A stretch of DNA of 64,000 bases from a virus (Duplodnaviria; Caudoviricetes). The notes under the pieces were generated by a model. That model made no database searches. It had not been told where the DNA came from and worked only from the letters and a program-made list of their open reading frames with translations. The stretch is taken from positions 6,487-70,486 of IMG/VR virus record IMGVR_UViG_3300014613_000027; one strand, 5' to 3'. This document shows positions 3,198 to 51,213 of this stretch, piece by piece (the stretch's first letter is position 1; each line of letters begins with the position of its first letter). The position numbers and the translations under genes were made by a program.

Positions 3198-4331
3198 ATG
3201 GTTGAGCAAGTTAAGTTTATAGCCTATTCGGATATTCATTATGATCGGCTAGGGGCCAAGTGCCTCACAATTAAAGATTGTGAGGAAATTGAAAGAGCAG
3301 TTCATGAAAGAATGAATGCTGGTTTTGACTTTTCTATATTCTGTGGTGATAGGTTTCTTAAGCGAGAACCTGAAGATGAAGTGAAGACTCGGGCGGATAG
3401 GGTTATGCTTGATATAATAGATAAGCGTGAATATAGAACTTGTTTTCAGTTAATTGGTAATCATGATTGGGTTACACGATCTAAACAATGGCATACTTCT
3501 AAATCTATAAATCGAGTTGGTCATGCTATAGAGGTTTTAAGTCATCCCTGTACACAGAAGTTTGTGCAGTTGTGTGAAGCTGATTACCGACAACAGACTA
3601 ATATCCATGCTCTTCCTGCTGGATTTGAAATGGATATGAGTGTTTACGATATAGATCCGAAAGCCTTAAATCTCTTCATATTTCATGACATGGTTACTGG
3701 ATGTAAGCTGGATGATGACGGTAAGGTTCTGGCTGAGAGTGGTATCAGTCTAGCTAGTATTGATAGGTCGGAATTTGACCTCGTGCTTGGTGGAGATATT
3801 CATGTTCCTCAGAGGTTGCCTTTTAAGAATACTCGTGGGGGTTATGTAGGTGCAGTTCTGCAGAGAACTCGTGCTGATGCTAATTGTGATCGAGGTTGGA
3901 TGGAGGTTACTGCAACCAGGGAAGCTTCCGGTAAGTGGGATTTCGATATAGACTTTGTGCCAGTTAGGGGGTTCTTTACTAAGTTTTCTTTTCAAGTTGA
4001 TGCAAATAGTAAATATGAAGGTCTTAGATTAGATGAAAATAGGATTGCAGATACTCATTGTGAAGTTGAGCTGATCGGTTCTCGGGCTGATGTGGATAGG
4101 ATAGCTAATGATCCACGATGGGAGAACTATAACACTTATTACAATACAAGAAATCTGATGCTAACTCGAAAGTATAAGGTCGAAAAGCAGGAAGCTGTTG
4201 TAGATATGAGTGAATCTCATGGTGTTATGGATGATTTGAATATGTATCTCGATAGTGGTTTTGTGGATATTGGTAATTTACCTAGAGCAGGTATAGTAGG
4301 TGTGGTCAATTCAGTATTGGAGGTTAAGTAA
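3198..4331 (+). CDS. sbcD: SbcD/Mre11-like metallophosphoesterase nuclease
   Basis: Phosphoesterase motifs SDIH, GDRF, GNHD, FHD, GDIH; adjacent to an SMC-type ATPase. Confidence 0.85.
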   Translation: MVEQVKFIAYSDIHYDRLGAKCLTIKDCEEIERAVHERMNAGFDFSIFCGDRFLKREPEDEVKTRADRVMLDIIDKREYRTCFQLIGNHDWVTRSKQWHTSKSINRVGHAIEVLSHPCTQKFVQLCEADYRQQTNIHALPAGFEMDMSVYDIDPKALNLFIFHDMVTGCKLDDDGKVLAESGISLASIDRSEFDLVLGGDIHVPQRLPFKNTRGGYVGAVLQRTRADANCDRGWMEVTATREASGKWDFDIDFVPVRGFFTKFSFQVDANSKYEGLRLDENRIADTHCEVELIGSRADVDRIANDPRWENYNTYYNTRNLMLTRKYKVEKQEAVVDMSESHGVMDDLNMYLDSGFVDIGNLPRAGIVGVVNSVLEVK

Positions 4332-27410: not shown

Positions 27411-27677
27411 ATGGAAGAAGAGTGGAGAATATATCTAAAGGAACACGCGCCTGAACTGTACCAGTCTATGCTCGTGTCTATTAGCTGGGCCGCAGAATGG
27501 AGAGATAAACGGATAAAGAAACTCCTCAACAGTGTTGAAGAGATGAAATGTTGCGCTAATTGTGAACACTATGACATAAATGATTGTGGAAAAAATGGGA
27601 GAGACGGGCAGTATGCTGGCCTCGAACATTGCCCAAAGTGGGACACACGTAGGCCCACAGAAACCAGGGGGGAGTGA
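27411..27677 (+). CDS. Cassette gene 4: hypothetical protein ending TETRGE
   Basis: CCANCEHY motif as in cassette gene 1; ends in the junction repeat. Confidence 0.7.
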   Translation: MEEEWRIYLKEHAPELYQSMLVSISWAAEWRDKRIKKLLNSVEEMKCCANCEHYDINDCGKNGRDGQYAGLEHCPKWDTRRPTETRGE

Positions 27678-28408
27678 TGAGGCGGTATATTATAGAATTA
27701 GAGCCTGGTGTATGGCTTGCTAGAGGACAGGGAGATCCTTGCAGAACATTGGTTAGAGCAAAAGCTCGAAAGTATGGCCGCTGGCAAGATGCAAAGACTG
27801 GATTGACTTGGGCACGTAAGTATAGACCGTTCAAGAATGCACAGATTCTAGAGGTTTATGATTTTCTGAAGTGGTTCAATTTAAGACTAGAGGGCTATAA
27901 AAGTCAGATTTTTCCAGCAGCCCTTCAGGAAGCTATGATTAAGAAGTATGAGAAGGAGGGCTCAATACCAGAGTTGGGGGTTAAACCCGAAAATCCGTAT
28001 GGAGGGCACTATGAGGAGGTTGATGAAGCTTATATTGATTATGGTGGGATGTGTTTTACTAATATGAGTATTGCTGAGTTTAAACTTCCTGGAGGTAAGT
28101 TATCTATACCTACAAGGGATATAGAATGCTTTCTTAATAGCCTTAAGAAGGCTGAAATTTGTAATGATTTGAATATTCCTTATTACAAGTTTTATAGTAA
28201 ATGGACTTGTGTTTGTCTATTGCCAGAGCATCGAGATCATTTGATTCCTATATTGGAGGGAGTACTGGAAGAGTCAAAGGAACTCGCCCGTAAAGAGTGG
28301 GATGGTATTTTAGAAGGGATAGAGAGAGTTAACAAGAAGCTGGGTCGGAAGGCTGTTCTTCCGCCAGTTAGAGCGGAGAAGGTACCTTCGGCTTCGGAGA
28401 TGAATTAG
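27677..28408 (+). CDS. Hypothetical protein
   Basis: ORF starts in the junction repeat. Confidence 0.7.
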   Translation: MRRYIIELEPGVWLARGQGDPCRTLVRAKARKYGRWQDAKTGLTWARKYRPFKNAQILEVYDFLKWFNLRLEGYKSQIFPAALQEAMIKKYEKEGSIPELGVKPENPYGGHYEEVDEAYIDYGGMCFTNMSIAEFKLPGGKLSIPTRDIECFLNSLKKAEICNDLNIPYYKFYSKWTCVCLLPEHRDHLIPILEGVLEESKELARKEWDGILEGIERVNKKLGRKAVLPPVRAEKVPSASEMN

Positions 28409-28950: not shown

Positions 28951-29259
28951 TTGAAATCTGGAGGTGAAGTGGTGAAAATTACAATAGATGTTGATATAGA
29001 AAATAATGAAGGAACGGACAGTCCTTGGTGGATTATTATAGATCCCAAACAGAATTTTAATACTAATGAGAGAGGTGTTTATAGTATAGCTGGCATGATT
29101 ACTGGGCCTTTCTTCTCAAGGGTTAAAGCTCAAGCATTCCTTGAAAGAACACGATACAATTTTAGTCAGCATGCGAAGGTTTATTGTCATAGTGGTTGTT
29201 ATTCTCAAGAGTACCGAAATGCAATAAAACAAAACAAACCACCCCAGGAGGTGAAATGA
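28951..29259 (+). CDS. Hypothetical protein
   Basis: 102-aa ORF. Confidence 0.6.
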   Translation: MKSGGEVVKITIDVDIENNEGTDSPWWIIIDPKQNFNTNERGVYSIAGMITGPFFSRVKAQAFLERTRYNFSQHAKVYCHSGCYSQEYRNAIKQNKPPQEVK

Positions 29260-29924
29260 TGGCTGGAAAGAATGATAACTACGAGACGCCGAGATACTTA
29301 GCTGATTGGGCGGTGAAGTATGCTAAGTCGCAGATCTACTCACATAATGAGAAGAGTCTGAGTATCCTGGAGCCAGGTTGTGGAGCAAAGGCACCATTTG
29401 CTAATGCAGGTTTAATAAGGGGTTGTTCAGCAGTAGCGGTAGAGAATAGAGAGGTGATTGAGAGTGAGGTTACTCCCTTTGATGAACTCTTACAGAGGGA
29501 AGGTTCATATTTCTCATTTTATCAAAAGACTGATTTCTTAGAGTCTGATTCTTGGAGGGGTCCTGCTACGAAGTTTGATATAATAGCTACGAATCCCCCA
29601 TTCTCGAAGGCGCTTCCATTTATATGGAAGTCATTAGATTTACTTCAACCCAATGGAGTAATGATTTATCTTTTAAGGTTATCATTTCTATCTTCTAAAC
29701 AAAGGATGCCTTTATATGCTGAGCGACCTCCTGCAGAAGTACATATTTTACAACGTAGACCTTCGTTTAGTTATGATGGGAAGACAGATATGTCGGAGTA
29801 TGCGTTTTTTGTTTGGTTTGGAGAAGAAGCAATGAAGTATATGAGATGTGTTGGTCATACTAATACAGCTTTGAAATGGCTTGATAATGGGACGTTAGAG
29901 AAAGAGTGGAATTCAGTTCCTTAA
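29256..29924 (+). CDS. SAM-dependent amino-type (N6-A/N4-C) DNA methyltransferase
   Basis: DNYETP, ILEPGCG (motif I), IIATNPPF (motif IV), RPSF..DG.TD..EYAFFVW. Confidence 0.8.
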   Translation: MMAGKNDNYETPRYLADWAVKYAKSQIYSHNEKSLSILEPGCGAKAPFANAGLIRGCSAVAVENREVIESEVTPFDELLQREGSYFSFYQKTDFLESDSWRGPATKFDIIATNPPFSKALPFIWKSLDLLQPNGVMIYLLRLSFLSSKQRMPLYAERPPAEVHILQRRPSFSYDGKTDMSEYAFFVWFGEEAMKYMRCVGHTNTALKWLDNGTLEKEWNSVP

Positions 29925-38747: not shown

Positions 38748-40598
38748 AAATCAAGTATCAATCAAAGAAGAAAAGCTGAGTGATGGTTCTATAGCTTATA
38801 ACGTTATAGTTATATCTGATGACAATGATTTCGAGATGGTAATTTACTGTGTGGATAAGAAGGCTGCGGAGAATATAAGCATGGCTTTATTCAATGGAGC
38901 ATTGAACTACGAGATAAGTAAACTTTAAAAGGAGAAAGACAATGGCTGAGAGAAGTAAAGGAACTTGGACAGAAGATGAGCATCGAGAACTGGTGAGACT
39001 GTGGAATCATCAATTAACTAGTGAAACTGAAGCTGAAAAGCTAAATTCAAAGTTTAAGAGAGATATGGGGTCTCGTTCATGGGATGTTCGAATAGTGAAA
39101 GCAGTAGGCCGCGAGGAGTATGATGTTATTATGAAGAGGAAGAAGAAAAACCCGCAACCAGATCTTCCTAATGTTGAGAAAATTGAAGTACCTGATGATA
39201 GGTGGAATTCTATGGAGGCAAAACAACAGAAAAAAATTGAGGCAAATCCAACTAGGTTAGCTATAGATTTTAATAGAATAGTTGAAGTGTCTCTCACTGC
39301 TGGAGTTGATCGTTATGTAGAAAAATATATTATGCTTTCAGAATACACTAAGATCCTAACCGAGAATGAGAGCCTCCAGAGGAAGCTTGAGAAATTTGAG
39401 GAGATGGAGAGTTTTATGGAAGGCTATAAAAAGTTTTTAAGAAAACTTGGGTCAGTGGAGGAGTTTAGTCCTAAAGTAGTAGAGGGATAGCTGATGACTA
39501 AATTCGAAGAATGGAAAATTCAATTCGAATCTACTAAGGTTATAGTTCGAAGTAATGAGAATGAGCAATTCGAGGTAGGTGAGCTTATAGGTTATGAAAC
39601 TATAGGCAGTAATGAATTTCCTTTAGTATTAATTAATGGGAAGCCTTTTGTATCTTTGGGTATAGTTATACCCTGGTCGAGGGAGATGGAGTTCTTTTTG
39701 AATTCTTTAGAACCTAAGAAGCAATGGGAGATACTCAGTAGTATAGTGATAGCTATTGGGATTAATAGGGAGTAGAGAAATGAAACTTTGGTTAATATTT
39801 CAGGATGAGAACGATGATTATGACACTTTTGATTCTGCTGTAGTCGCAGCAGAGACCGAGGAGCAGGCTAAATCTATTCACCCTTATGGTAGTGATGCCT
39901 GGTCTTCCAGGAATTCAGATACCTGGGCTTCTTCTCCAGATAAAGTTACAGCCAAGTATCTCGGTGAAGCATACGGAGATATAAAGAAACCAGGAGTTAT
40001 TCTTGGATCTTTCAATGCAGGTTAAGAGGTAAAGATGGAAATTAGAACAAAGGTAAAACTTTCACCTATGAGAAAAGAATCGGAAAATCTTAATATTCTA
40101 GTGGGTTTTGATATGGGTTGGGGTAATGGTTATATAGGAGTTCCTAAAGAGCATCCTTGGTATGAAAAGTATTATATGGATATAGAAAATGAATATGATG
40201 TGGATATTCATGGCGGCCTTACATACAGTGGTTTTGAAAATGGTGATAAGGGTTTTTGGTGGGTAGGCTTTGATACAAGTCATGTTGGGGATACTTTAAG
40301 AGATTGGCCTAGAAGTAGAGTTGAAGAAGAAGCACAGCGTCTTCAAAGAATAGCTATAAGTGTAATTAAGGAATAAGGTTAACTAATGTTCAACTGGCTT
40401 CTAAATAAGCTTCGAGGTAATTTTACTATTGAGTGGCCTTCAGATGAGGAGTGGTCATGCAAGAGGAAGATTTGGTATCGGACAAGGTTAGCTGCCGAGA
40501 AAGCTTATATAGAGATGAGAAAGAGAGGAACTCTCGATCATGAAGTTGAAGCTTATAAATGTAGATATTGTGGTAGGTGGCATTTAGGAGGAATCTAA
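38740..40598 (+). other. Run of small hypothetical CDSs: 38740-38928, 38942-39490, 39494-39775, 39780-40025, 40035-40376, 40386-40598
   Basis: Packed + strand ORFs. 39780 (YDTFDSAVVAAE) and 40035 (GNGYIGVP..HGGLTYS..WWVGFDT) look like widespread phage families. Confidence 0.65.
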
Positions 40599-40600
40599 AA

Positions 40601-41827
40601 ATGAAGATTGAAAAATTAACAGAAGAGCAAATAGCTAAGTTTCCTGAGTATCGGGATAAATGGTTAAAAATAGGACTTCAAACATCTGAATCTTTTGATT
40701 TCAAATTAGCTAAGCAGGCAGCAATTGAAGTATATAAATGTGTTGGAATGAAGGAACCTGAGATATTTATTAATTTAGGTAGTCCTTTAGAAGGTTGCAT
40801 CGGATCTTATTTATTAAATCAAGTAGGGAATCAAGTATGGAATCAAGTAGAGGATCAAGTATGGAATCAAGTAGGGAATCAAGTAGGGAATCAAGTAGGG
40901 AATCAAGTATGGAATCAAGTAGGGAATCAAGTAAGGGATCAAGTAGGGAATCAAGTAGGGAATCAAGTAAGGAATCAAGTAGGGAATCAAGTAAGGGATC
41001 AAGTATGGAATCAAGTAAGGAATCAAGTAAGGGATCAAGTAGGGAATCAAGTAGGGAATCAAGTAAGGAATCAAGTAGGGAATCAAGTAAGGGATCAAGT
41101 ATGGAATCAAGTAGGGAATCAAGTAAGGGATCAAGTATGGAATCAAGTAAGGAATCAAGTAAGGAATCAAGTAGGGAATCAAGTAAGGGATCAAGTAGAG
41201 GATCAAGTTTATAAATGTGGTTATGGTTTACAGGATTCTAGTTGGTTATCATTCTATGATTTCTTTAAAAATGAGCTACACTTAGAATGTTGTAATAAAC
41301 TTAATGGACTAATGGAGCTTTCTAAACATTCTGGTTGGTGGTGGCCTTTTGAGAATGCTGTTATATTAACACCATTTCCAACTATATTAGTACGAGATGA
41401 TGAATTTAGATTACATTGCGAAAATGGTCCGGCTTTGAAATATCCGAGTGACTTTGCAATTTATTCTTGGCATGGTGTAAGAGTTCCTTCTGAGTGGATA
41501 GAAAATCCGGAGGATCTAGATCCTAGTAAAGCATTAGAATGGGAAAACCAGGAGCAGAGAAGGGCTTTATGTGAAATAATAGGATGGGATAGAGTATTAA
41601 ATACTCTTGAATGTAAAACAATACATACTGATGAGAAGGGAGAATTAATCGAAACTTCTAACATAGATGATGGTGATGATGTAGCTAGGTTTGTTAAAGT
41701 TATAGATCCCAGCACAGATAGAAGGTATGCTCTTAGGGTGCCCCCAGAAATAAATACAGCAACTAGCGCGGTTGCATGGACATTTGGAGTAGAAGAAGAT
41801 ACCTATCAACCAACACAGGAGAGTTAA
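40601..41827 (+). CDS. DUF6745-like phage protein with (N/D)QV(G/R/W) tetrapeptide repeats
   Basis: [16 protein letters not shown]-terminus; C-terminal [10 protein letters not shown]...[10 protein letters not shown]...WHGVRVP...[12 protein letters not shown]. Confidence 0.7.
40817..41212 (+). repeat. Coding tandem repeat, 33 x 12 bp (consensus AATCAAGTARGG)
   Basis: 33 xQVx units counted in the protein. Confidence 0.95.
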
Positions 41828-45350: not shown

Positions 45351-45974
45351 ATGAAAACTGTAAAAGCGAAATGTAAGTTAATTAGGGAGATGTTGGGAAC
45401 TGCTGCTGCAGATCCTGAAGTGCATGAGAAATTTATTGCCAGCAAGAGTGCAGACAAGAATAAGATTAAGGAGGAGATGGCTGCTCTTTCTGCCGCAGAG
45501 CTTATTGAGAAGTCTTTGACTGTTTTTCCACGGGATGAAGACGGCGATCCTTTTATTTATGATTATCAGGTGAGGGGTCATATCAAGGATTTCTTAGGTG
45601 GTGAAGTAGAGTTTCAAGATCTTTATATTAAGGTAGGGACGAAGGAATATAAGTTTAGTAAGTGGACTTATAAGCGTCTTGTAGATAACTTTATCTTTGT
45701 TACTCCCCGAAAGATAAAGTTGAGGCTACCTGAAGGGAAGGACATGGGTCTTTGTACAAGACCTTTAAGAGCAGAGACTCAACAAGGTCCAAGGATAGCT
45801 CTAGCTACTAGTGAGACAATTCCTGAAGGGACTGAATTTGAATTTGAAGTCCATTGTCGTCAACCAGAATTATTTGATTTGATACCAAAAGCTCTAGATT
45901 ATGGAGCTTTAAATGGACTTCTTCAGTGGAGGAATTCGGGAAAGGGTACTTTTACCTGGGAAGAGCGAAGTTAA
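45351..45974 (+). CDS. Stand-alone Cas7/RAMP-like protein
   Basis: RAMP pattern: beta1 VKAKCKLIREMLGT, PFIYDYQVRGHIKD (cf. P.IPGSSLKG..R), SETIPEGTEFEFEV, and Gly-rich loop DYGALNGLLQWRNSGKGTF. No other cas genes nearby. Confidence 0.7.
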   Translation: MKTVKAKCKLIREMLGTAAADPEVHEKFIASKSADKNKIKEEMAALSAAELIEKSLTVFPRDEDGDPFIYDYQVRGHIKDFLGGEVEFQDLYIKVGTKEYKFSKWTYKRLVDNFIFVTPRKIKLRLPEGKDMGLCTRPLRAETQQGPRIALATSETIPEGTEFEFEVHCRQPELFDLIPKALDYGALNGLLQWRNSGKGTFTWEERS

Positions 45975-46478
45975 GGTAAAGTTTGGTAAAGTTAGGGTAA
46001 AGTTATGTTTTGGTTTCGTACGGTAGAGTTATGTTTTGGTTTCGTATCGGTACGGTATGGTTCAGTGAGGGTATTGCCTAGTGTAGTCCTGTTCTGGTTA
46101 TGTGAAGTGAAGTCTTGGTAGAGTACTGTCGGGTGATGTGGCGGTAAAGTCACGTACGGTAACGGTAAAGTACTGTGAAGTGAGGTCCAGGTTGAGTCTG
46201 GTAACGTGATGTGGAGGTATAGTTTTGTGGAGTATGGTCCAGGTTGAGTGAAGTTTTGTGATGGTAAAGTCCGGTAACGTGATGTGTGGTGTTGGTAGAG
46301 TTATGTGGTGTCAAGTTTTGGTCTCTGTAACGTGAGGTGAGGTAGAGTAAGGGTAAAGTGCGGTTATGTCTCGTACTGTCTTGGTGAGGTGAAGTTCTGC
46401 ACGGTAATGTTTGGGTAAAGTGAGGTAGAGCTACGTTTGGTAAAGGTGTGGTTCAGTGAAGTTTTGTGAAGGCAAAGT
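45967..46478 (+). ncRNA. Non-coding periodic NNNGY array, putative guide-RNA array for the adjacent RAMP protein
   Basis: Parsed by hand into 98 contiguous units all ending GT (94) or GC (4): 76 pentamers and 22 hexamers. No track ORF covers it on either strand. Confidence 0.7.
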
Positions 46479-46660
46479 ATATTAAAGGATATGAGGATAA
46501 AAAATGAAACTAACAGATGAACAACAAAGGAAGATAAACAACAAAAAGGAGAATGAGATGAAGACGATTAAAGAAGATGGCGAGATGATTTTTTTAGAAT
46601 CAATAATAGCAGGAAGACCGACAACGTAAATTATCAAGGATTCAATAGGAGGAAAAGGAA

Positions 46661-47354
46661 ATGAAAAATGTAATATCAAGATGGTGGCATGAATGGAATG
46701 ATCTTTTTATAGCTTTAGCCATTGCGTGTATAGTTGTGGGAATTATTATATGGCTTGGAATTGGGTCTTCCGGCAACCTGAATTATGTAAAAGAGCGCTC
46801 TGAAATAAGATTTCAGGAATTGAACTATGAAATCATTGGCTATGAAGGATACCGGTTTGGCTTCTGGGGCTACAATGATTTCGGCGGTGCCCATGTTTGG
46901 TATCTATTAAAGAAAAATCCAGATAATGGAATTATCTACAAGGGTTCACTGCAGCGATGGGGTGATGAGATACACCTAATGCAGCTTAAGGCAGTAGACG
47001 CTATTAAGCCATAACGAAAGATAAGGTAAGGGAAACATAATGAATAAATTTCTAAAAGGGCTAGGTATTTTATTTTTGGGTGCTGTAGTTATTGTTTGGG
47101 GTGGTTTTGTTTTACAAATTCTTTGGAGTTGGTTTGTTTCTTCTCCGTGGGACATTAGACAGATTACTTTAACAGAAGCAGTGGGTATAGATTTAATCAT
47201 TTCGTTTTTGACTCAACAATTCAATTGGGGTAATTGGGATGAAAGTGTTGAGCTTTCTGATAATTTAACTAAGACGGAAGTACGTATTATACACATGATT
47301 ATTCAACCTGCATTATTTTTATTTGTTGGGTGGGTTGTAACATTCTTTATGTAA
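46661..47354 (+). other. Two small membrane-protein CDSs: 46661-47014, 47040-47354
   Basis: Both contain hydrophobic helices. Confidence 0.6.
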
Positions 47355-47392
47355 AAAGTTTATACCTAGATACTCAAAAGAAAGTTAAGTTT

Positions 47393-48871
47393 ATGAAATT
47401 AACAGATGAACAACAAGCGATAATTGACGCTACTCCTCCAGAAGGTGGATCTCTCCTCGTTACAGCTTTCGCTGGTACGGGGAAGACCTTCACCTTAGAG
47501 AAGTATGCTGAAGCTCGCTCAACTAATAGAATTTTATACGTAGCTTTTAACAAGGCTATACAGCTCGAAGCCGAGAGGAAGATGCCTTCTAATGTAATGA
47601 GTCGAACTACTCATTCTTTAGCTTATAGAGTCTTCGGTGCGAAGTATCAGAAGGCTGGGCTCTTCCAGTTTAGTGTACCTCTTTGGAGGATTTCTAAACT
47701 ATTAGGCTTGTGGAATAATATAGTTGTAGCAAACTTTGTTGATACTATACTAAAAAAGTTCTTATCATCTCCTGATAGAGATATTACTGAAGCTCATTTT
47801 ACTCAGGATATTCTCGATTATTATGAAGGGGCTCTGAGACCTCCTCCACTTATCCAGATGGCTAAGAGAGTATGGGAGGATATGAAGAGTATGCAATCGA
47901 AGTCTTTACCAATGACTCACGATGGGTACTTAAAGTTATATCAACTATCAGAGCCAGTGTTAGATTTTGACTATATTATGCTCGATGAAGCTCAGGATAC
48001 TACTCCTTGTGTCTGGGACATTATGAAGAAGCAGAAGTGTAGAAAAATTGTTGTAGGCGATCCTTTTCAAGCTATCTATGAATGGCGAGGAAGTATAGAT
48101 GCCTTAAGTAAGGTTGAAGATGCCGAGAGCTTGTATCTCTCCAAGAGCTTCAGGTTCGGCCCAGAGGTCGCCAAACTAGCAACTACCCTCCTGCAAAGGT
48201 TCTTGGGTGAGAAGAGAGCGGTGAGCGGCCTGGAGTCGTTGAGCACAGAAATACATACAACAGGGTATCCTGAGAGCCCGACTATAATAGCCAGGGGTAA
48301 TAACTTTATCTTCAGATCTGCTGCTTCCGAGTGTGGGAATGGCGAAAGGACCTTTGGCTTTGTCGGTGGAGATCATACTAACTATAGATTTCAATCGGTT
48401 CTCGATGTATATCATGTTTATAATGATGAGCCAGATATGGCCAAGGATTCTCTCATTAAGTCTTTCAAGAGTTATGAAGAGCTTATAGAATACTCGGGGA
48501 AGGTTCATAGTTATGAATTAGAGAGTGCTATTCAACTGGTTGATGAGTATGGATCGAGGATACCTAATATTATTAAAGAAGTTAAAAAAAGAGATGTAGG
48601 CGCTCAGTATTCCGACTTAACTTATACAACAGGACATAAAGCCAAGGGTTTAGAATTTCCAGTGGTTCAATTAGCTCCTGATTTTTCAGGAATGATTGAG
48701 GCACATAAGGATGATCCTGGTGCAGGGATTATTAACTCTAGTGAAATGAATTTGCTCTATGTAGCTATTACTCGGGGTACTGAGAAGCTCTTCATTTCAC
48801 CTACTATTAAAGATTTCATTGAAAATGGGTATTGTACTGGTAATTTTCCAATATGGAAGGAAGTGAAGTGA
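47393..48871 (+). CDS. UvrD/Rep-like superfamily 1 helicase
   Basis: LTDEQQ Q motif, AFAGTGKT (Walker A), MLDEAQD (Walker B), VGDPFQAIY, SFRFG, TGHKAKGLEF, LYVAITRG. Confidence 0.9.
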   Translation: MKLTDEQQAIIDATPPEGGSLLVTAFAGTGKTFTLEKYAEARSTNRILYVAFNKAIQLEAERKMPSNVMSRTTHSLAYRVFGAKYQKAGLFQFSVPLWRISKLLGLWNNIVVANFVDTILKKFLSSPDRDITEAHFTQDILDYYEGALRPPPLIQMAKRVWEDMKSMQSKSLPMTHDGYLKLYQLSEPVLDFDYIMLDEAQDTTPCVWDIMKKQKCRKIVVGDPFQAIYEWRGSIDALSKVEDAESLYLSKSFRFGPEVAKLATTLLQRFLGEKRAVSGLESLSTEIHTTGYPESPTIIARGNNFIFRSAASECGNGERTFGFVGGDHTNYRFQSVLDVYHVYNDEPDMAKDSLIKSFKSYEELIEYSGKVHSYELESAIQLVDEYGSRIPNIIKEVKKRDVGAQYSDLTYTTGHKAKGLEFPVVQLAPDFSGMIEAHKDDPGAGIINSSEMNLLYVAITRGTEKLFISPTIKDFIENGYCTGNFPIWKEVK

Positions 48872-49592: not shown

Positions 49593-50251
49593 ATGAAGTC
49601 CTGTAAAATATGTGGAAGCTTTGCGATAAATCCGCATCTTCATGACAGGGTGCCTGGTGAGGACTTGGACCTCTGTGATGTGTGCTACTGGCGAGCTAGG
49701 GCTAATGAAGCCAGGATGGAAATAATATGTAACAGTGTTTTCACAACCAAGGGTGATATACGGCTAATAGAATTAAAAAAAGCCTATGCCAAAAAGAGAA
49801 AATGGCGTGGTCTGTTCGAAGGGGAGGGAGATGAATAATGAACAAGATAAATCCAAAAATAGTGAAGGGTGAGCCAGAGTGTAGCGAAGAATGCCCATAT
49901 TTTAAAAGGATAGGGTTTGGAAATAAGGATACTCTCTCAAAGAGTTATTATTGGTGTGATGAAATGAAAGACAAAACCAATGATGAACTTCCTTGCATTC
50001 CTGGTCTGCGCCAGCAAAGGGATGGTAAGGAAGATGAACTTATCGAGTTAACGGGTAGGTTCAATACCGCCCTAGCAGCGAAGAAAGAAGCAGAGAAGGA
50101 ACGAGACAGGTTTATCGAAGACTGCGATTCACTTAAGCGTTCAGTTACTAAGTTAAATTCTGAGAAGCTTACTCTAGTGAATACATTGGAAAAGGTGCAG
50201 CAGGAACTAGGTGAAGTATTTGATTCTCTACATATTGAAGTGGTACGATGA
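49593..50251 (+). other. Hypothetical CDSs 49593-49838 and 49838-50251 (the latter a paralog of cassette gene 3)
   Basis: MNKINP....GEP.C...C...C.P.LR..RD is shared with 26939-27385. Confidence 0.65.
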
Positions 50252-51213
50252 AAGACTTAGCAGACATAGGTTTCTATACTTTATCGAATGATCGAGCAGC
50301 TAGAGTGTCTGCTTCAACTCGCTTAGAGCGTTGTGAGCTTCTCCTCACGGATGCTTGTAATTTTAAGTGTCCTTATTGTCGTGGAGCTAGAGAGGGCTAC
50401 GAGGGCACGATGCCTTTCTCTGAAGCTTCTCGAATAGTAAAGCTTTGGACGGACGATAATCTTAGAAACATTAGATTCTCTGGAGGTGAGCCTACTCTAT
50501 ATAAAAATCTTGTTAAGTTAGTAGCTCAGGCCAAAGACGGAGGAGTTGAGCGTTGTGCTATCTCTACTAATGGTTCTGCTGATTGGGAACTCTACAAGGA
50601 GTTAATAGAAGCTGGAGTTGATGATTTTTCAGTATCTTTAGATGGCGGTTGTTGCGCTACAGGTCAGAAGATGAATGGTGGTATTTCTGGAGTCTGGGAT
50701 AAGGTTATAAGTAATATTGCGAGAATAAGTAAGTTAACATACTGCACCGTAGGAATGGTATTTACAGAAGATAATGTTAATGAATGTTTAGATGCCGTTA
50801 GATTTGCTGTAGGTTTGGGAGTATCAGATATTCGAGTAATACCTTCAGCTCAATATAATAAGGCTTTGACAATGCTTGCCGATCTGGAAGGGTTGAATAG
50901 TTTTCCAATACTCAAGTATCGAATTAATAATATAAGAAATGGAAGACATGTTCGAGGTATTGAGAAAGATGATAAGACTAGGTGTAGGTTAGCTCTAGAT
51001 GATATGGCTGTTATTAAAGATGAACATTTTCCTTGTATTATCTACTTAAGAGAAGGCGGTGATCCTATAGGTGAGGTAGGACCTAATATGCGAGCTGAAA
51101 GACTAGAGTGGGTAGAAAATCATATTCCAGCAGAAGATTCTATTTGTAGTAAGAATTGTTTGGATGTCTGTGTTGATTACAACCACGTTGCTGGAAGAGG
51201 AGGATCTATATAA
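50248..51213 (+). CDS. Radical SAM enzyme (MoaA/NirJ-like)
   Basis: CNFKCPYC (CxxxCxxC), RFSGGEPTL, ISTNG, SVSLDG, C-terminal Cys cluster. Confidence 0.9.
   Translation: MKDLADIGFYTLSNDRAARVSASTRLERCELLLTDACNFKCPYCRGAREGYEGTMPFSEASRIVKLWTDDNLRNIRFSGGEPTLYKNLVKLVAQAKDGGVERCAISTNGSADWELYKELIEAGVDDFSVSLDGGCCATGQKMNGGISGVWDKVISNIARISKLTYCTVGMVFTEDNVNECLDAVRFAVGLGVSDIRVIPSAQYNKALTMLADLEGLNSFPILKYRINNIRNGRHVRGIEKDDKTRCRLALDDMAVIKDEHFPCIIYLREGGDPIGEVGPNMRAERLEWVENHIPAEDSICSKNCLDVCVDYNHVAGRGGSI

Follow-up and report, generated by a model that had tools for sequence, protein, structure and literature searches.

The window analysed here is a stretch of 64,000 nucleotides (nt) from a 70.5-kb IMG/VR virus record that is about 40% complete; the phage it represents recurs across groundwater metagenomes. 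Between 45351 and 46629 of the window lie a gene for a small protein with a predicted Cas7-like RAMP fold, a long tract of short repeated units that begins at the stop codon of this gene (45351-45974, + strand), and a small ORF. As detailed below, the gene and tract resemble the components of VIPR, a CRISPR-related, RNA-guided DNA silencer made up of a minimal RAMP protein, Vipr, and of vrRNAs composed of GGY/NN pentamers (10.64898/2026.04.26.720920). The features of the locus are as follows.

45351-45974, + strand: vipr gene, encoding a predicted minimal Cas7-like RAMP of 207 aa whose C-terminal G-loop reads GLLQWRNSGKGTF
45967-46478, + strand: probable vrRNA-encoding array of 98 units NNN-G-Y, in the VIPR register x-G-Y-N-N (from the parse and shuffles)
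45972, 45993, 46009, 46035, 46046, 46067, 46093, 46114, 46140, 46161, 46187, + strand: starts of hexamers 1-11 (from the parse)
46213, 46239, 46260, 46291, 46317, 46323, 46349, 46380, 46411, 46442, 46468, + strand: starts of hexamers 12-22 (from the parse)
46001-46046, + strand: tandem duplicate of one 26-nt block, with a shared 20-mer at 46001 and 46027
46184-46286, + strand: two 14-nt repeats in the unit register, with copies 52 nt apart (46184/46236) and 73 nt apart (46200/46273)
46479-46629, + strand: 3' end of the array and 41-aa ORF, with a ribosome-binding site directly after the array and an ATG at 46504

The array abuts the ribosome-binding site of the next gene, with no structured 3' tail or pseudoknot after it. 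No conserved 3' sequence was found after the array across the loci compared, and a search from 45974 to 46504 found no terminator-like site. Helicase accessory genes occur in some VIPR types. Here, an all-against-all BLASTP comparison of the ORFs of 13 loci revealed no conserved accessory (vap) gene by vipr, since only vipr itself clustered across at least three loci. On either side of vipr and its array, the window encodes a phrog_8905 protein (upstream) and a UvrD-like helicase (downstream), neither of which is conserved. The helicase gene (PF00580, E 9.5e-18; 47330-48871, + strand) starts 850 nt 3' of the array and is not kept beside vipr in related loci; beyond it, a radical SAM enzyme is encoded at 50248-51213 (+ strand). 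Upstream of vipr, a 416-aa ORF (40577-41827, + strand) contains about 33 tandem tetrapeptides, [N/D]-Q-V-[G/W/R/E], followed by a C-terminal DUF6745 domain (E 3.7e-47). The tetrapeptide stretch arises from a 12-nt repeat at 40817-41208 (32.7 copies, 89% match), and its fourth residue changes from copy to copy.

The array is 512 bases long and is built on a rhythm of five-base units. A dynamic-programming parse of 45969-46478, with units ending in G plus a pyrimidine, resolves it into 75 pentamers, 22 hexamers, and one 3-nt start, giving 98 units. An initial annotation of this DNA had held that every unit ends in GY, and this is so for 98 of 98 (94 GT and 4 GC). Within the pentamers, G occupies position 4 without exception (75 of 75) and T occupies position 5 in 72 of 75, while positions 1, 2, and 3 have near-maximal entropies of 1.88, 1.82, and 1.88 bits, respectively. 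The claim that the first two bases vary freely is therefore correct as far as it goes, but the third pentamer base (A29 G19 T19 C8) is just as variable, leaving only two of the five positions fixed. The variable positions are depleted of C and rich in A, indicating that they are not fully free. Overall, the array is 35% G, 34% T, 22% A, and 9% C.

The periodicity of the array was judged against 1000 dinucleotide-preserving shuffles; the initial annotation had named a comparison with composition-matched shuffles. Autocorrelation stands well above that of the shuffled sequences at lags 5 (0.475, z 8.7), 21 (0.477, z 8.7), and 26 (0.547, z 12.1). From one GT to the next, the spacing is 5 nt in 64 cases and 6 nt in 20, and the share of spacings of either length is 0.86, versus 0.20 in shuffles (shuffle maximum 0.35). 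All but one of the 22 hexamers fit NNNGGY, the sole exception being CTCTGT at 46323, and their placement is regular: 18 of the 21 hexamer-to-hexamer gaps contain 3-5 pentamers, and the gap variance is 1.58, compared to 12.6 when the order of the units is permuted (0/5000 permutations as low). Thus, hexamers recur every 4-6 units, as the first inspection had suggested, and mark off about 22 blocks of 21-31 nt.

When read in the VIPR register (x-G-Y-N-N), a hexamer amounts to a complete GGY unit preceded by one additional nucleotide, and the base after it is usually A. In the window, A is the first base in 14 of the 21 units that come after a hexamer and in 15 of the 54 remaining pentamers (p 0.003), an enrichment also seen in both sets of related arrays described below, those found by pattern and those found through the protein. 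A pyrimidine before the GGY of hexamers was considered as a further rule and discarded, with p values of 4e-10 in the pattern-found arrays, 0.6 in the window, and 0.09 in the protein-found arrays. The motif GGTA[AG]AGT, of which more than ten copies had been claimed, is present in 12 copies inside the array and 3 in the remaining 63.5 kb of the window. The exact repeats at 46001/46027, 46184/46236, and 46200/46273 also lie where they had been placed. The first consists of 3 identical units in a row at an offset of 5 units, and shuffled arrays average 0.04 such runs. The two 14-nt repeats cover 2-3 units each and may reflect a shared constraint or chance.

Several other types of element were considered for the tract and rejected. 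A repeated peptide does not fit, because the tract lies outside every + strand ORF of at least 40 aa and codons cannot repeat with a period of 5 nt. When the variable triplets of 1314 units are translated as codons, 66 stops are observed versus 81.5 expected, a slight depletion with no clear in-frame coding signal. An Rfam search of the array gave no match at E <= 1, which argues against a known RNA family, and its predicted RNA fold is no better than that of shuffles (z -1.23), which argues against a structured RNA and is expected of a single strand coated with protein. Finally, Tandem Repeats Finder detected no 25-40-nt repeat-spacer array in the window, and the RAMP gene stands alone with no cas genes, contrary to a CRISPR-Cas locus.

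The 207-aa protein has no match in a Pfam search. Its AlphaFold2 model (mean pLDDT 88.9) comprises strand 1, a two-helix insert (residues 22 to 44), helix-1 (residues 71 to 88), a long β-hairpin (residues 133 to 157), and the C-terminal G-loop. The best Foldseek matches of this model in the PDB are Cas7-family RAMPs, namely the type VII Cas7 8z4j_J (E 1.5e-7), Csm3 6xn3_F, and Cmr4 6s6b_I, and also Cas7-11; the top folds have a probability of 1.00 and a TM of about 0.5. The effector of the window is thus predicted to be a minimal single-RRM RAMP with a G-loop, a thumb, and an α-helical bundle. The protein belongs to a large family: HMMER retrieved 1508 cluster representatives at E <= 0.001 from a set holding one representative per 50%-identity cluster.

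The experimentally characterised relative used for comparison is the Vipr of phage SUSP1. Its gene was identified in KT454805 from 13 residues specified in the structure paper, 12 of which agree; at residue 175 the gene product has V, and the paper gives T. Pairwise BLASTP between the two proteins is not significant (E 0.92), and their kinship is therefore remote. Alignment of the window family (A1) to the SUSP1 Vipr family (A2) by hhalign extends end to end over 182 columns with an E of 1.6e-5 and a probability of 79%. This full-length match supports homology of the window protein to the characterised Vipr, and its moderate strength is a point against the assignment.

The residues that contact the repeat are informative in this respect. 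In the SUSP1 complex, one Vipr protomer binds each repeat; H17 and D177 hold G1, R138 and W178 hold G2, and R179 is part of the pocket for Y3 (10.64898/2026.04.26.720927). In an alignment of 60 members of the window family, W193 is invariant and R194 is present in at least 90%, and this pair aligns with the W178/R179 pair that holds G2 and Y3 in SUSP1. Similarly, the products of the genes upstream of the pattern-found arrays end in G-[LF]-[GL]-Q-W-R-x-x-G-x-G. The contacts to G1 differ from those of SUSP1, in that the window protein has Q192 in place of D177 and an alignment gap at the H17 loop. A fixed G2/Y3 and a free G1 position in the array thus match the retained Trp-Arg pair, the lost Asp, and the absent His loop in the protein, and the relaxation of the first anchor base from GGY/NN to NGY/NN would fit the change from Asp to Gln at the G1 contact together with the missing His-bearing loop. 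Since the published repeat lists include types without a fixed G1, the missing G1 contacts and free G1 are a difference between clades and not grounds for exclusion from VIPR.

The tract is counted as VIPR because of the Cas7/RAMP fold, the full-length profile match, and the position of the array after a Vipr-family gene. The locus thus appears, from sequence and predicted fold, to belong to a divergent clade of VIPR systems; its repeat is of the relaxed NGY/NN ("YNNNG") type, and it lacks both a 3' tail and a conserved accessory gene. The view of the initial annotation that the tract is no simple microsatellite is upheld, and a guide-type array that belongs to the Cas7-like gene directly upstream is indicated in its place.

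The locus shares much with the type II VIPR of SUSP1. Both are encoded by a phage and have a single small RAMP with an α-bundle, a thumb, and a Trp-Arg G-loop, and in both, the repeats lie beside vipr on its strand and consist of 5-nt units that combine a fixed G-Y with hypervariable bases. SUSP1 specifies four separate vrRNAs, each about 100 nt long and made up of 11-15 strict GGY/NN pentamers and a conserved pseudoknot tail, along with vap1 (10.64898/2026.04.26.720920, 10.64898/2026.04.26.720927). In contrast, the window has one uninterrupted tract of 98 NGY/NN units, punctuated by a hexamer every 4-6 units, and lacks a tail and a conserved vap gene. These two absences set it apart from the characterised type II systems and count against the assignment, as does the failure of the searches described below to find a natural target. 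In SUSP1 (locus L017), within 27499-28030 and 29062-29510 of the minus strand, three of the four guide tracts close with a hexamer in GGGT, either GTGGGT or ATGGGT, directly ahead of the tail, indicating that a hexamer is also present at the 3' boundary of most of the reference guides.

Other counterparts have been reported. "YNNNG" is listed as an alternative VIPR repeat (10.64898/2026.04.26.720920), tail-less 'staggered' arrays, with each vrRNA beginning where the previous one finishes, are described in the legend of fig. S18 of that paper, and non-canonical WGT/NN variants have been reported beside a Vipr-like fold (10.64898/2026.10.21.760802). As far as the accessible text of these papers describes them, these clusters resemble the window in their relaxed first anchor base, their tail-less arrays, and their position beside a Vipr-like fold. 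The text of the YNNNG and WGT/NN papers contains no 6-nt step, 21-31-nt superperiod, or block length, whereas the window has such steps and superperiods, and 6-nt steps are likewise missing from what can be searched of the VIPR literature as a whole. Published VIPR array callers demand units exactly 5 nt apart. One may guess, going by the figure legend, that the hexamers of the window correspond to the published staggered arrays. The array is a further example of a kind of VIPR already described in the 2026 preprints, to which it adds a measured example and a clade-wide rule but no new mechanism. The Cas7 backbone of Class 1 CRISPR (Csm3, Cmr4, type VII Cas7) is a more distant likeness: it has the same fold, one protomer per fixed step of RNA, and a thumb that periodically breaks the pairing between guide and target. 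However, the 6-nt step with 5 paired bases, the repeat-spacer arrays, the Cas6 or Cas5 handles, and the adaptation genes of Class 1 systems are all absent from the window locus.

The grammar of the array is conserved beyond the window. A search for a pattern of two consecutive 26-nt superperiods identified such arrays in nine other viral contigs, the shortest array being about 120 nt and the longest about 2.9 kb. Although the pattern itself selected these arrays for the hexamer grammar, five loci reached through the protein alone (L020, L065, L066, L061, and L062) show the same grammar, with hexamers every 4-6 units; none of 5000 permutations is as regular as L020, and at most 2 of 2000 are as regular as the other four. 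Overall, regular GGY hexamers are present in 14 of the 14 arrays parsed, 5 of which were reached via the protein alone, and they make up 16-23% of the units, or one per 4.4-6.1 units. In each locus with upstream DNA (the window, L008, L010, L011, L012, L014, L015, L020, L065, and L066), the array directly follows a Vipr-family gene. The presence of the grammar in the nine pattern-found arrays and the five protein-found loci makes its two levels, pentamer and hexamer, a clade-wide trait. In the lineage of L066-L068, the hexamer is near-constant, AAAGGC or AATGGC.

Two relatives depart from this arrangement. In L018 (5790-6300), the second-closest relative (Vipr 69% identical), the array looks decayed: many units no longer have the G-Y anchor, and no more than short runs of 10-14 units remain. 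This may be an eroding VIPR locus. In L016 (41% identity; 3313-3658), no array lies 3' of vipr, where a small ORF and an SSB gene are found instead. Upstream of the L016 gene is a chain of 5/6-nt steps anchored on GA, not GY, which may be an array with a different anchor on the gene's other side.

Comparisons among close relatives reveal how the arrays change. L067 and L068 encode Vipr proteins that are 97% identical (genes, 93% identical in nucleotide sequence), and the arrays have in common one block that runs exactly from hexamer to hexamer and, elsewhere, one adjacent pair of blocks; they are otherwise unrelated. The common blocks start just after one hexamer and finish with the next, and their order is reversed between the two arrays. 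Such reordering would ruin a long contiguous guide but not independent short guides. The comparison of modules among related phages that had been proposed at the outset thus finds whole hexamer-bounded blocks in a different order, and the proposal that hexamers delimit blocks receives indirect support for the blocks of evolution; for guides, the hexamers are putative boundaries.

Changes within units were seen in L068 and L069, in which the vipr genes are the same (0/597 differences) and the arrays differ at 3 of 256 positions, all three of them at unit positions 1 or 2, which supports the idea that arrays diversify at the variable positions. In these two loci, the cassette of vipr and array is near-identical (2001-2853 of L068 and 116-968 of L069), while the flanks differ by 9% (a downstream YqaJ-like gene) to 20% (the upstream 115 nt), which suggests that the cassette moves between phages by recombination. 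The proposal that arrays grow by duplication fared less well. The window has one 3-unit tandem copy (26-nt offset) and L011 one 13-unit copy (62-nt offset), but duplicated runs of at least 3 units are absent from six other arrays, and duplication thus appears to be a minor source of array content. Blocks common to the window and other arrays were limited to matches of 13-17 nt, in line with the biased composition, and the near-identical Vipr loci L070, L071, and L072 have identical arrays, which are uninformative about turnover.

By homology with SUSP1, a working model for the locus can be proposed. The array would be transcribed together with vipr just upstream, and each 5-nt unit would be bound by one Vipr protomer, with the fixed G and pyrimidine clamped by the Trp and Arg of the G-loop and by the thumb. 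In the characterised system, the NN bases of the vrRNA pair with DNA, and every third target base is skipped (10.64898/2026.04.26.720920). Likewise, the two bases after the pyrimidine would be exposed here and would pair with the double-stranded DNA of a rival element, again skipping every third base of the target, and the bound Vipr filament would silence transcription. The hexamers would split the array into its 21-31-nt blocks, about 22 in number, acting separately, most likely as short guides or as separately nucleated segments of filament. A turn of the SUSP1 filament takes 6 protomers in the free state and 5 (about 25 nt of RNA) on DNA (10.64898/2026.04.26.720927), and the frequency of hexamers, about one per such turn of 5-6 protomers, may be linked to it. 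Taken as a whole, the tract is very probably a vrRNA array of a phage VIPR system that is divided by its hexamers, as seems likely, into short guides or filament segments.

A stronger form of this model holds that the hexamer-bounded blocks of 4-6 units are autonomous mini-guides of one filament turn each, which are gained, lost, and reordered like CRISPR spacers, in a clade with modular turnover and possibly with three bases read per unit so as to be specific enough. This is a tentative idea and, on balance, a doubtful one. A point against the main model as well is that blocks of 4-6 units are shorter than the validated vrRNAs, which hold 9-16 repeats, and would carry 8-12 informative bases if just two bases per unit are read.

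An RNA library bears on whether the array is expressed and cut. In one groundwater metatranscriptome, contigs are present only on 46272-46423 of the locus, at a depth of 4-12, and none cover the flanking genes; the contigs are devoid of strand or end information, and carry-over of DNA is possible. Their confinement to the array is a weak hint of a stable RNA. The contigs reach 160 nt and span several hexamers, indicating that the RNA is not fully cut at each hexamer. Some contigs (run X7) join 46423 to 46294 and 46410 to 46281, each 130 nt back, at short shared motifs. These junctions may come from a strain with a variant array, in which a block of 25 units is duplicated, or may be assembly artefacts in repetitive sequence, and they were left out of the evidence.

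Searches for targets gave results at the level of chance. The scans of public collections take only exact seeds with at least 14 specified bases, more than a single block of 4-6 units can supply, so that negative results say little. Locally, all 10-unit windows of the array were compared with 211 kb of phage DNA under skip rules of 0-3 nt, and the best match, 17/20, equalled that of a swapped-base control. Three seeds of 8-9 units with a 1-nt skip rule had 18, 22, and 18 matches in public collections, about the number expected by chance. Units in the flanks of these matches agree at 26% for the two IMG/VR seeds; those of the metagenome seed, when the most favourable of four hexamer offsets is chosen, agree at 11/32 on average and at 14 at most. 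Exact searches with three longer patterns (9-11 units) found no match in the metagenome and genome collections.

Other explanations must be weighed against a VIPR array that is divided by its hexamers. One retains the VIPR array but has it specify a single continuous Vipr filament, or long parts of one, with the extra nucleotide of each hexamer serving as a phase correction or hinge about once per turn; long filaments would need such a device, and the 12-unit guides of SUSP1 would not. One hexamer per 4.4-6.1 units is comparable to the SUSP1 turn of 6 protomers (free) or 5 (DNA-bound, about 25 nt), the strongest autocorrelation is at 26 nt, and the contigs of up to 160 nt cross several hexamers, all of which this explanation accommodates. 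It is nonetheless unlikely, given that the blocks of L067 and L068 keep their identity yet change order, a process that would wreck a long guide. The absence of matches to two 11-unit patterns (in metagenome contigs and in genome contigs) and the failure of 8-9-unit seeds to extend across hexamers beyond chance also count against it, although these are weak negatives. Another explanation, that the array is a decoy or sponge for the Vipr of a rival or of the phage itself, with variable bases that have no targets, is highly improbable. Near-maximal entropy at the variable positions and units that are nearly all different are not needed by a decoy, and the array and its own vipr form one cassette that is near-identical in L068 and L069 while the flanks differ by 9-20%. 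What such a decoy does explain is the lack of a target in the local and public searches, and the C-depleted, A-rich variable positions, which are not fully free.

The tract might also act as double-stranded DNA, as binding sites phased at half a helical turn in a partition, packaging, or origin element, with its link to the RAMP incidental. The mean unit of 5.2 nt makes two units equal to 10.3-10.5 bp, near the repeat of B-DNA. Yet the fraction of hexamers ranges from 0.16 to 0.23 between arrays, leaving the match to 10.5 bp loose, and it is treated as a coincidence; canonical VIPR arrays of the same family hold a strict 5.0-nt period and have been published as RNAs bound by Vipr. Moreover, the strong strand asymmetry (9% C, 35% G) and the constant location on the coding strand right after the RAMP gene are at odds with a DNA element, and this explanation is extremely improbable. 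The VIPR array divided by hexamers is the preferred reading of the locus.

VIPR is a class of RNA-guided DNA binders that is only months old and has been proposed as an ancestor of CRISPR. Its detailed dissection so far covers only the type II systems, with their guides of 9-16 units and a tail. The window locus represents a large uncharacterised clade, that of the 1508 cluster representatives, with arrays that are long, tail-less, and regularly punctuated. If the blocks of 21-31 nt are working guides, they would set a new lower limit for guide length, make it possible to test if reading extends to the freed first anchor base, and offer a way into how the content of VIPR arrays changes.
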